From a virus, in the IMG/VR virus record IMGVR_UViG_3300046311_000263, positions 13,376-77,375 of that record: 64,000 nucleotides of DNA; one strand, 5' to 3'. The notes below the pieces were generated by a model. That model had not been told where the DNA came from and searched no databases. It saw nothing but the letters and a program-made list of their open reading frames with translations. Positions 59,982-62,561 of the stretch are shown piece by piece. Within the stretch, counting starts at the first letter, position 1. Every line of letters starts with the position of its first letter. The position numbers were made by a program, and so were the translations under genes.

Positions 59982-60320
59982 ATGACTGAAAAGACCAAGG
60001 CCGTGAACTACACCGCCGAACAAGTTGCTGAGATGGTTGAAGCTTACAAGGCTGTGTCGACCAAGGCTACCGTGAAGGCCCTGGCTGAAAAGCTGGGCAA
60101 GACCGAGCGTAGCGTTATCGCTAAGCTGGCAAAGGAAGGGGTTTACCAGAGCGAGGCGAAGGAAGCCGGCAAGCGTGCCATGCTGAAGAGCGAGATGGTG
60201 GCTAAGCTGGCGGAGCTGACCGGCGCGAGCGAGGAACAGCTGGACAGCCTGGAGAAGGCTACCGGTACTGCACTGATGGTGCTGGTGAAGGCTCTGACTG
60301 CGGCGCAAGCCGCTGAGTGA
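59982..60320 (+). CDS. A2: A2-like DNA-binding protein, paralog 2
   Basis: VNYTAEQ, GKTERSVIAKLAKEGVY, SLEKATGTAL; clearly paralogous to 57007. Confidence 0.8.
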   Translation: MTEKTKAVNYTAEQVAEMVEAYKAVSTKATVKALAEKLGKTERSVIAKLAKEGVYQSEAKEAGKRAMLKSEMVAKLAELTGASEEQLDSLEKATGTALMVLVKALTAAQAAE

Positions 60321-60347
60321 GCAACCCGAGGGTCAGAAAATTTTGAC

Positions 60348-60467
60348 TTGACCCTCGAGGTATTTTAATCTATAATAGATATATCGATTGGGGAATAGCA
60401 GCAACAGACACCAGCGTCGAATGACTAAAAATTCTGTCTTGACTCGCTGCTAATTCTTCTGTATAAT
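60348..60467 (+). promoter_or_regulatory. Two tandem consensus sigma70-type promoters for the ncRNA operon
   Basis: TTGACC-17-TATAAT (60348-60376) and TTGACT-17-TATAAT (60439-60467). Confidence 0.88.
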
Positions 60468-60473
60468 GAATGT

Positions 60474-60906
60474 ATGCCAGGCGGAATGCTGGCGGCGTAA
60501 GTACCAGAAACACTGGCAGCCATAAATGAAAGTGTGGGTGGACAGCGGTGGTGCTGGCAGCATAAATCATGCTGTTACAGGTTGATCCAAGCGTCCTTAA
60601 TTGCCGAGAATATTAGAGAGACTTTGCAGTATTTACACTACCAAAGTAAACCTAGAGCCGAGCGTCAGCCCTTCAGAACACCGATTGAAATCCCTGCCGC
60701 ACTTTACCAGTGCAGGCATATGACCTGCAGACAACATTAAGGCGGGGATTTCAATGGGTGGTTTGAGACCCCGCCGTAAGGCCGGGATAAAAGCTTAATG
60801 GAGTCTGAAATACTCGAGTCTCCGCCCAGTAAATTAGTCTATTTTGTTGACCCCCGGCGAGTCAAGTGTTTTCGCAAGTCTATGTTAGACTCGCCGGGGA
60901 AGGCTG
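60474..60906 (+). ncRNA. Structured non-coding RNA(s), family unassigned
   Basis: 15-bp stem 60684-60698/60741-60755, 12-bp stem 60852-60863/60888-60899, several small hairpins. Confidence 0.6.
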
Positions 60907-60915
60907 TGAAGTATT

Positions 60916-60990
60916 GCCGTATTCGTCTAGTGGTTAGGACACCGGGGTTTCATCCCGTCAACGAGAGTTCGATTCTCTCATATGGTACCA
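60916..60990 (+). tRNA. tRNA-Glu(UUC), copy 1
   Basis: Cloverleaf, TTC anticodon, GAGAG-TTCGATT-CTCTC T arm, encoded CCA. Confidence 0.92.
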
Positions 60991-61105
60991 AACGCAAACT
61001 CTGATGATGACTCCGCGTTAAGTGAGTCGAAACTCTAGCTATCTGTAGCAAATCGCTGAAGCAACTTCAGTCTGCCTCACTTGCTATAACCTAGGGTCAG
61101 GAAGT
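60991..61105 (+). ncRNA. Type I hammerhead ribozyme, copy 1 (cut after C61098)
   Basis: CUGAUGA, stem II GACUC/GAGUC, GAAA, stem III ACUCUAG/CUAGGGU, GUC site, AACGC/GCGUU pseudoknot. Confidence 0.85.
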
Positions 61106-61108
61106 ATT

Positions 61109-61183
61109 GCCGTATTCGTCTAGTGGTTAGGACACCGGGGTTTCATCCCGTCAACGAGAGTTCGATTCTCTCATATGGTACCA
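61109..61183 (+). tRNA. tRNA-Glu(UUC), copy 2
   Basis: Identical to copy 1. Confidence 0.92.
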
Positions 61184-61298
61184 AACGCAAACTCTGATGA
61201 TGACTCCGCGTTAAGTGAGTCGAAACTCTAGCTATCTGTAGCAAATCGCTGAAGCAACTTCAGTCTGCCTCACTTGCTATAACCTAGGGTCAGGAATT
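61184..61298 (+). ncRNA. Type I hammerhead ribozyme, copy 2 (cut after C61291)
   Basis: Identical core to copy 1. Confidence 0.85.
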
Positions 61299-61300
61299 TA

Positions 61301-61932
61301 TACCACTGGCCATGGCGGCCAAAGCTAAATAGTAATATCTAAGAGATCGCAACTTAGGTTCCTAAATCCGGAAACCAACGGTGCACGTATTGCATGTCCG
61401 TGGTAATGCCAAAAGGCTACTGATATTCGGATAACTAACCACTTACAGAGCTGGTGCTCGTTGGTGGAGGTTACATGTGTCACCAGCCGTCTATCTGAGG
61501 TCAACCTATGCTCAGATTGCACGATATATAATGGCTCCTAGTGAACTGTCGTTCATAGCTGGGGGAAGCAGAACGACGTTAGCCTACCCCTTTATGGACG
61601 AGAGCGGTAGAGGTGAAGTTAAGATGCCAAAGTAGATGAAATTTCTACAACCTAGATAGGCCCTGATAAGCAATCACCACTAAGGTGAGAGTGCTCATAG
61701 TCAAAACCTTTAAATAGTAGCTTGGTGATCTACTAGTCTAGACAGCTGCGAGATAGTGACTTATCGTCTCCTTAGACCAAGAATGGTACACTTGGTGCAG
61801 ATAAAGAAATCTCGGATGCGCGACCGAGTGTGAACATGTTACGAAATATGTAGGAAGCATATCCTCCCCTAATAAGGTATAGAAAAGCAGCCAGTAGTGC
61901 CAACCAGCCAGACTGAAATTAAATCGGTGGTA
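61301..61932 (+). ncRNA. Large ornate ncRNA (~630 nt; ROOL/GOLLD-like in size and context)
   Basis: Closing stem TACCACTG/CGGTGGTA, more than 12 internal hairpins, no + strand ORF of 60 aa or more, terminator follows. Confidence 0.75.
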
Positions 61933-61941
61933 CGATTTATC

Positions 61942-61975
61942 CAGCCCCTACGTCGAAAGACCTAGGGGCTGTTTT
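61942..61975 (+). terminator. Intrinsic terminator of the ncRNA operon
   Basis: CAGCCCCTA-CGTC-GAAA-GAC-CTAGGGGCTG-TTTT. Confidence 0.85.
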
Positions 61976-62179
61976 CGTTCCTGCGCCAATATTATACAGT
62001 GCCAAAACTATCTGTGTCAAGTGAGAATTTACTCAGCCGACCCTACGTCAGAGCAGTCTCCCGCCTCCGGCGGGTACTTGCTCAAATTTAGGCATCTGCT
62101 CAAATTTGAGCAAATACCCAAACTTAGGCCAATTATCGCTTCTAACCGATATTTTGAAAATATCGCCTCTAGCCGATAT

Positions 62180-62230
62180 AAAATGCAAAAAGCCCACACA
62201 GTATTACGCTGTGTGGGCTTTTTGCATTTT
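62180..62230 (-). terminator. Long hairpin terminator after D3-like gene
   Basis: AAAATGCAAAAAGCCCACACAG...CTGTGTGGGCTTTTTGCATTTT. Confidence 0.85.
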
Positions 62231-62561
62231 AGACACCTGCTTCGCAGGGAGATAATTTCTCAATAATTAGCTTTAATATGCTTTTATTGACCTTACCTAG
62301 ACTTTCTGCGAGATCTATGTCGATTTCTAGCAATTCTGCGAGTTTTTGGACGTAAAACTCTTTTTTAACTGGAGGTTCGCCGGTTTTTCCGACGTAGGAC
62401 TTCTTTTTGTAGAGGCCCATAGAGCTGAGCTTGGCTATGATGCTTCGCTCAGTGGTGCCAAATTGCGACGCAAGCTCGCAGGTTGGCACGCCTGAGGTGA
62501 ACTGAGCTACTAGGGACTTCGTTATCTCGTGTGTGTATTCTAACTTACCAAGGGGCGTCAT
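62229..62561 (-). CDS. D3: D3-like DNA-binding protein (A2/D3 family)
   Basis: GTTERSIIAKLS, YVGKTGEPPVKK shared with 57007; directly follows D2-like gene. Confidence 0.75.
   Translation of the reverse strand: MTPLGKLEYTHEITKSLVAQFTSGVPTCELASQFGTTERSIIAKLSSMGLYKKKSYVGKTGEPPVKKEFYVQKLAELLEIDIDLAESLGKVNKSILKLIIEKLSPCEAGV

Follow-up and report, generated by a model that had tools for sequence, protein, structure and literature searches.

A predicted hammerhead-released non-coding RNA with a small conserved core in a distant relative of T5-like phages

What purpose is served in a phage genome by a stretch of several hundred nucleotides that follows a predicted self-cleaving ribozyme, ends at a terminator and encodes no protein? 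We address this question in the right-hand 64 kb of a 77-kb IMG/VR virus record with an estimated completeness of 73% (this whole 64,000-nucleotide stretch is called the window below). To our knowledge, little is understood of what hammerheads do biologically in phages and bacteria, and we are aware of few described large tRNA-linked phage RNAs (GOLLD, ROOL), none with a known function. The locus offers a compact case: its promoters are strong and of the host type, a ribozyme is expected to fix the 5' end of an RNA, a core of ~110 nt covaries clearly, and related loci in nature, some having the tRNA and some lacking it, carry different downstream RNAs. The sequencing runs containing window DNA are freshwater metagenomes, and its genes include those of a tape-measure protein, a head protein/protease, DNA polymerase A, a ribonucleotide reductase and an SbcC-like protein. 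Because the best matches are to T5-like phages of enterobacteria and Vibrio (portal ~40% identity, DNA polymerase ~52%), the earlier note was right to call the phage T5-like, in the sense of a distant kinship.

The + strand order at the locus is two promoters, a leader, two tRNA-Glu/hammerhead units, the RNA under study and a terminator. The two tandem sigma-70-type promoters (TTGACC-17-TATAAT, 60348-60376, and TTGACT-17-TATAAT, 60439-60467) each match 11 of 12 consensus positions and, judged by their sequence, are consensus host-type promoters that would drive the whole non-coding operon; the promoter region 60348-60467 is conserved in relatives. On the upstream side lies a DNA-binding-type gene of 112 aa (59982-60320, + strand) that matches phrog_1725 and phrog_323 'D5-like regulator'. 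Its paralog of 110 aa (62229-62561, - strand), 35% identical to it, matches phrog_1725 only, not phrog_323, and is followed, past the RNA operon, by a 266-aa gene. The bracketing of the non-coding operon by these paralogous small genes of a DNA-binding family is seen in the relatives as well as in the window.

Through the protein family of the 266-aa neighbour, we fetched 117 related loci from viral and metagenome contigs, a set that leaves aside the contigs of P0002 (76%) and P0003 (60%), the closest relatives. Most of these loci come from lake or other freshwater samples; a scan of genome contigs gave one distant locus, which was left out of the analysis. The gene order is conserved: a DNA-binding gene, a non-coding region, often a tRNA-Glu, a hammerhead, several hundred bases leading to a strong terminator, an opposing promoter, the paralog and the 266-aa gene. 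GenBank phages showed no DNA similarity to the RNA or the surrounding 8 kb; at the protein level, neither the 112-aa neighbour nor P0005, which is homologous to the 266-aa neighbour, had a match there.

The non-coding leader (~440 nt, 60475-60915, + strand) has nhmmer matches in dozens of related loci and contains a three-way-junction module of ~75 nt (60754-60828, + strand) that covaries across 20 sequences, with 6 of 6 pairs covarying in its 3' hairpin. The module, with the consensus AUGGGUGUUAUGAG[hairpin]AUAACAACUURAU[hairpin]GCCCA, is kept in at least 20 related loci (e.g., L027:7211-7283:- and L016:7101-7173:-), which makes it far more widely conserved than the downstream RNA at 61292-61980. 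It has no Rfam match, either in the window leader at E<=10 or in the related loci at the gathering score. What comes after the module is a tRNA-Glu or, in tRNA-less relatives, the hammerhead directly. In the window, two identical 193-nt units follow (60916-61291, + strand), each with a tRNA-Glu(UUC), at 60916-60990 and 61109-61183, and then a hammerhead. One DNA run yielded a contig in which 60812-61107 is swapped for 36 other bases, which may represent a variant or relative having a single tRNA-hammerhead unit and no tandem pair.

Whether the RNA has a defined 5' end depends on the second of the two hammerheads (61001-61098 and 61194-61291, + strand), which have type-I topology and predicted cuts after 61098 and after 61291. 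In the latter copy, CUGAUGA occupies 61194-61200, GAAA occupies 61222-61225 and the GUC cut site ends at 61291. Across 26 distinct copies from related phages, the core reads CUGAUGA in 22 and CUGACGA in 4, the cut site ends in UC in 21 and in UA in 5 (GUC or GUA), stem II is a hairpin, and stem III consists of 6-7 pairs closing a structured insert of ~50-70 nt. Stems II and III are paired in at least 24 of the 26 copies and show 2-5 pair types per position; since our search pattern demanded stem II/III pairing, only the variety of pair types, and not the pairing rate, counts as evidence for these stems. Stem I measures 3 bp in most copies and 5 bp in some. The window has a stem I of 2 bp, the weakest of the 26 copies and the only one with a mismatch at position 3. 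Its two hammerheads are also the most divergent of the 26, with a loop II of CGCGUUAAGU in place of the family UGCAAKU; this loop may pair with AACGC just upstream, forming a pseudoknot that compensates for the short stem I. Rfam hammerhead models gave no match at E<=10 in 60200-62300, none at the gathering score in 13 related loci and none at E<=1 in L105 and L040, probably because of the long stem III insert and the short stem I. Given the 2-bp stem I and the lack of an Rfam hammerhead score, cleavage in the window is not certain. The recurrence of the core in 26 copies, with varied pair types in stems II and III, nevertheless makes the cut at 61291/61292 a credible 5' end, and we conclude that a genuine hammerhead, conserved across the family and predicted to cleave, very probably sets this end.

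Type I hammerheads are found in transcripts of phages and prophages (Perreault et al. 2011, PMC3088659; review PMC6765202). The window copy resembles them in its full catalytic core, GUC site, stems II and III (which vary in pair type across the family) and open stem I, and in its place within a phage transcript of several parts, which it would cut into fragments that differ in stability (PMC3088659, PMC6765202). It differs from known type I examples in that its family fails the Rfam models, carries the ~50-70-nt stem III insert and has a stem I of 3-5 bp (2 bp in the window), and in that the ribozyme stands after a tRNA or a three-way-junction module and before a long non-coding RNA rather than a gene. 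The tRNA-less relatives retain the hammerhead directly behind the conserved leader module, so the ribozyme serves the flanking RNAs and not the tRNA alone.

The cut falls on the ribozyme's 3' flank, so that the RNA beyond it would start at 61292 with a 5'-hydroxyl, and the proposed start at 61301 does lie 9 nt past the predicted second cut (61291/61292). At the other end stands an intrinsic terminator (61942-61980, + strand) with a 9-bp G+C-rich stem that extends to 12 bp with a GAAA loop (stem 61942-61971), followed by UUUUCGUU; its stem begins at 61942, in agreement with the description of an RNA ending at 61932, 9 nt before a terminator. Counted to the terminator U-tract, the predicted hammerhead-released RNA (61292-61980, + strand) is ~689 nt long, with a 5'-OH and no coding potential.

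The lack of a + strand reading frame stands up to closer inspection: the longest + ORF has 52 aa, each of the six frames holds 11-19 stops of all three kinds, and no coding capacity appears on either strand under any stop reassignment. If one or more small proteins were nevertheless encoded, the candidates would be the 52-aa ORF itself, which starts with GTG (61477-61635), and an AUG at 61624 preceded at 7 nt by the strong Shine-Dalgarno-like GAGGUGA. That AUG opens an ORF of 3 codons and is missing in three homologs (L023, L037 and L039), the conserved block lies in different frames among homologs, and tblastn against the homologous regions found no conserved peptide, returning only matches of 6-15 aa, in several frames at once, at nucleotide-conserved blocks. 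We therefore regard a coding function as extremely improbable. As for the motif itself, the 7-nt GAGGUGA (within 61611-61635 of the window) is invariant in 5 of 5 homologs of the core module described below, would pair perfectly with the 3' end of 16S rRNA, and is masked inside a helix of that module (P_b). From its sequence and that of its relatives, 61292-61980 is a genuine non-coding RNA unit of the + strand, bounded by a predicted ribozyme cut at the 5' end and by a terminator at the 3' end, which upholds the + strand non-coding unit of the earlier note, with the intrinsic terminator as its 3' end.

Is this RNA a member of a catalogued class? At the gathering score, Rfam recognizes in the window the two tRNAs only and in the related loci likewise only tRNAs; at E<=10, on both strands of 60200-62300, there is no ROOL, GOLLD, OLE, intron, RNase P, tmRNA, T-box or hammerhead match. 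The Rfam comparison that the earlier note had proposed thus gave no family match, which places the RNA outside the catalogued families, and its suggestion of a divergent ROOL or GOLLD member finds no support, as neither covariance model matches at E<=10. GOLLD (RF01998) and ROOL (RF03087) are large phage or prophage RNAs that often lie near tRNA islands (bioRxiv 10.1101/2024.12.08.627333; PMC5737381), and in GOLLD the 3' region is described as conserved and the 5' region as less so, with tRNAs sometimes in the linker (bioRxiv 10.1101/2024.12.08.627333). Like them, the window RNA is phage-borne and ORF-free, falls in the range of 500-800 nt, shares its unit with tRNA genes and is unevenly conserved. 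Unlike them, it has structure conserved over ~200 nt only and not over the whole molecule, it has a (predicted) ribozyme-made 5' end, and the family found is tiny, with five core homologs.

How much of the RNA is structured? All the stems quoted with coordinates lie where they were reported (GCTGGTG/CACCAGC at 61450/61481, ATCTGAG/CTCAGAT at 61493/61511, GTCGTTC/GAACGAC at 61548/61571, CCAAG/CTTGG at 61777/61791 and CTCGG/CCGAG at 61811/61824). The 8-bp stem said to close the molecule, TACCACTG (61301-61308) with CGGTGGTA (61925-61932), is likewise present, with one G-U pair, but it has no conserved counterpart in L002, L023 or L037; we rejected it as a closing element, since complements of 7-8 nt with G-U pairs arise several times by chance in the same transcript. 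Compared with shuffled sequence, the folding energy of the whole stretch has a z of -1.6 on the + strand and -2.7 on the - strand, and windows of 150 nt range from +0.1 to -2.1, the terminator excepted. These unexceptional energies make the phrase 'packed with hairpins' true as a description and not beyond chance. The claim of a dense structure over ~630 nt is accordingly not upheld: comparative support is confined to a core at ~61450-61652 and to the 3' hairpin and terminator, and beyond the central module and the terminator the consensus fold of the four full-length homologs retains no more than a few doubtful helices.

The comparative evidence is concentrated in that core. nhmmer searches with 61292-61990 found homologs in L002 and L023 (one contig each) and, weakly, in L037, and a covariance model of the core module M1 (61546-61652, + strand; helices P_a 61547-61578, P_b 61579-61616 and P_c 61632-61648) added a fifth member, L039 (E 2e-4, ending at the contig end), with further compensatory changes in P_b. 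These are the only five core homologs among the 117 fetched loci, and exact-pattern scans of viral contigs with two core motifs led to no contigs beyond those already found. M1 contains the invariant sequences CGUUAGCCUAC and GUAGAGGUGAA. Covariation among homologs, which had been named beforehand as the test, is present: in 12 of 26 pairs both sides have changed in a compensatory way, paired cells make up 96%, and the covariation score was reached by 0 of 500 column shuffles, with slid controls giving 1-3 covarying pairs. A ~90% variant from a sequencing run supplies additional compensatory pairs at 61634/61646, 61636/61644 and 61592/61601, and within the hairpin 61548-61577 all of its substitutions are in the loop. 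The same holds for the hairpin at 61450-61487 (+ strand) just upstream. In the next hairpin (61493-61517, + strand), the stem AUCUGAG/CUCAGAT becomes AUAGA/UCUAU in L037, and the 11-nt loop GUCAACCUAUG is conserved. Near the 3' end, the hairpin AAAUCG[GUGGUA]CGAUUU (61921-61938, + strand), which contains the CGGTGGTA arm, has a covarying stem that takes three forms in all (AAAAAUG/CAUUUUU in L037, AAAUA/UAUUU in L039), with the loop UGGU(A/G) kept. The hairpins of the 3' half lack such comparative support, and this half varies freely. Taken together, the alignments show or strongly indicate selection for + strand RNA structure at ~61450-61652 and in the 3' hairpin plus terminator, with the remainder being variable spacer.

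The same alignments bear on the choice of strand. An opposing promoter (TTGACA-18-TATAAT, 62020-61991, - strand) matches 12 of 12 consensus positions, points into the terminator and the RNA, and is conserved past the terminator in many relatives. The functional product could thus be an antisense RNA that starts there, runs across the terminator and the 3' hairpin and perhaps further, and regulates the + RNA or blocks read-through; the slightly better overall folding of the - strand (z = -2.7) and terminator-like sites on that strand at 61910-61888 and 61828-61811 fit such a product. These sites are weak, however, and by eye the one at 61910-61888 has no counterpart in L002. Moreover, M1 contains 12 G-U cells and 0 A-C cells, which indicates that the + strand is the functional, selected one, since the G-U pairs of the covarying helices would become A-C mismatches on the - strand. 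We consider an antisense product quite unlikely. Further consensus sigma-70 promoters on the - strand lie at 59680-59651 and 59405-59376.

Outside the core, the RNA changes quickly. The four full-length homologs measure 480-790 nt, differ by large indels and can be aligned only in islands; their consensus fold retains 59 pairs over 841 columns, most of them in M1 and the terminator, and only about a quarter of the alignment lies in conserved helices. In the ~90% variant, 61741-61818 (78 nt, including the CCAAG/CTTGG hairpin) is replaced by 14 other bases. In 26 related loci besides the window, a simple script search put the first predicted terminator 382-924 nt from the hammerhead, with sequences that differ between lineages; these distances are approximate, as the 584 of L005 reflects a weak hairpin ~260 nt short of the strong terminator and the 456 of L038 reflects a second terminator, ~200 nt beyond the first. 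Stop-to-stop frames in the tRNA-bearing loci show open frames of at most ~100 aa in some downstream stretches.

Such turnover would be expected if the hammerhead and the terminator were there to mature and terminate the leader/tRNA transcript and the segment between them were a functionless, fast-evolving 3' trailer whose hairpins slow nucleases or aid termination. The variable homolog lengths with their large indels, the 78-nt replacement in a close variant, the z near zero across 61590-61860 and the confinement of conserved helices to about a quarter of the alignment are all in line with a trailer. After cleavage, though, a trailer would be detached and unable to protect the tRNA, and every relative keeps an RNA of at least ~380 nt ending at a terminator, even in the absence of a tRNA. 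Simple nuclease barriers would also have no need of the invariant nucleotides and covariation of M1, and the RNA-library contigs described below are located on the core. A functionless trailer is therefore a possibility that we take seriously but find doubtful. We favour the reading as a + strand RNA with a selected core, one that evolves fast, is modular and conserves only a small core, a description that suits it better than that of a large ornate RNA.

A second RNA lineage (L015, L027, L031, L040, L050, L077, L080 and L105) has a conserved 5' module of ~95 nt with covarying hairpins, 3-8 copies of a small hairpin followed by GUUAAAAG (e.g., CGACCCUAAGUCGUUAAAAG), and GACCCTAA/TTAGGGTC inverted repeats, which also flank the next terminator. 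GTTAA occurs 54 times against 26 expected over 27 RNAs and is not enriched in the window. The commonness of inverted repeats in the relatives, the presence of paralogous DNA-binding-protein genes on both sides and the convergent consensus promoters would fit another role for the region, as a control element at the DNA level that binds the flanking D5/A2-like DNA-binding proteins or carries a signal for replication or injection. However, neither the GACCCTAA repeat nor the hairpin with GUUAAAAG is enriched in this window, and compensatory changes that keep G-U helices on one strand indicate selection on RNA, so we judge a purely DNA-level role very unlikely.

Is the RNA made? In one lake metatranscriptome, two exact contigs of 151 nt span 61376-61664, the sole exact matches across the 2.7 kb compared, and they coincide with the conserved core. 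In this run, 61292-61375, 61665-61980, the tRNAs and the flanking ORFs lie outside the exact contigs, which cannot by themselves show absence. Because the contigs carry neither strand nor ends and DNA carry-over is possible, they only hint at expression.

With modest confidence, we hold that the best explanation of the locus as a whole is a hammerhead-released + strand phage RNA with a selected core, which may act in trans as a decoy or scaffold. Under this explanation, host RNA polymerase would transcribe the protein-free operon from the two consensus promoters through to the intrinsic terminator, and the strength of these host-type promoters suggests early and heavy transcription during infection. 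Self-cleavage of the hammerhead after C61291 would then free the 3' product 61292-61980 with a 5'-hydroxyl. In Gram-negative bacteria, which may not include this host, decay of the RNase E type is stimulated by a 5' monophosphate, and a 5'-OH is a poor entry point. The 5'-OH together with the 3' hairpins may thus keep the RNA stable, with the two 3' hairpins probably blocking exonucleases, and, as a trans-acting decoy or scaffold, the RNA would bind a host or phage factor through its conserved core. In M1, invariant positions, both single-stranded and helical and including the masked GAGGUGA, point to recognition by a partner and favour this mode of action; the rapid turnover of the flanking parts fits a role in an arms race. 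In the specific form of a stable, trans-acting 5'-OH decoy or scaffold, the proposal is tentative, and we think it rather unlikely to hold in every part. Should the released RNA turn out to be abundant and to act early as an effector, host take-over by T5-like phages would gain a layer based on RNA, and the retention of the ribozyme there would be explained.

A bolder extension of the preferred reading, which we regard as speculative and unlikely, would make the whole early transcript of ~1.5 kb a new class of self-processing modular phage RNA whose released 5'-OH decoy disables a host factor or defence at the start of infection. Its modules would be one or more three-way-junction leader modules, an optional tRNA-Glu, the hammerhead and an exchangeable effector RNA, with phage lineages placing different effector cassettes in one slot. 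As candidate mechanisms, the masked Shine-Dalgarno-like core might engage ribosomes, or the UGGU loop might engage the CCA end of tRNA-Glu.

Other modes of action were considered for the window RNA. A sponge of the CsrB/RsmZ type was rejected, as GGA occurs 8 times against 10.7 expected in the window RNA and 207 times against 210 over 27 family RNAs, and no repeated binding motif is enriched in the window RNA. Antisense targets, sought as reverse complements of the single-stranded part of M1 and of the loop GUCAACCUAUG, were not found elsewhere in the window. By description alone, the window RNA can be likened to 'species 1 and 2' (rnaC and rnaD) of the phage T4 tRNA cluster, stable non-coding RNAs of ~120-140 nt that are co-transcribed with tRNAs and cut from a common precursor, there by host RNases and not by a ribozyme. 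A T-box riboswitch was also rejected: no + strand gene follows, there is no Rfam T-box match, no antiterminator alternative is apparent, and the T-box-like GGUGGUAC occupies the loop of another hairpin, clear of the terminator stem (61942-61971). Located at 61926-61933 within the 3' hairpin, this GGUGGUAC is similar to the T-box core and includes a UGGU whose complement is the ACCA terminus of the tRNA-Glu made on the same transcript.
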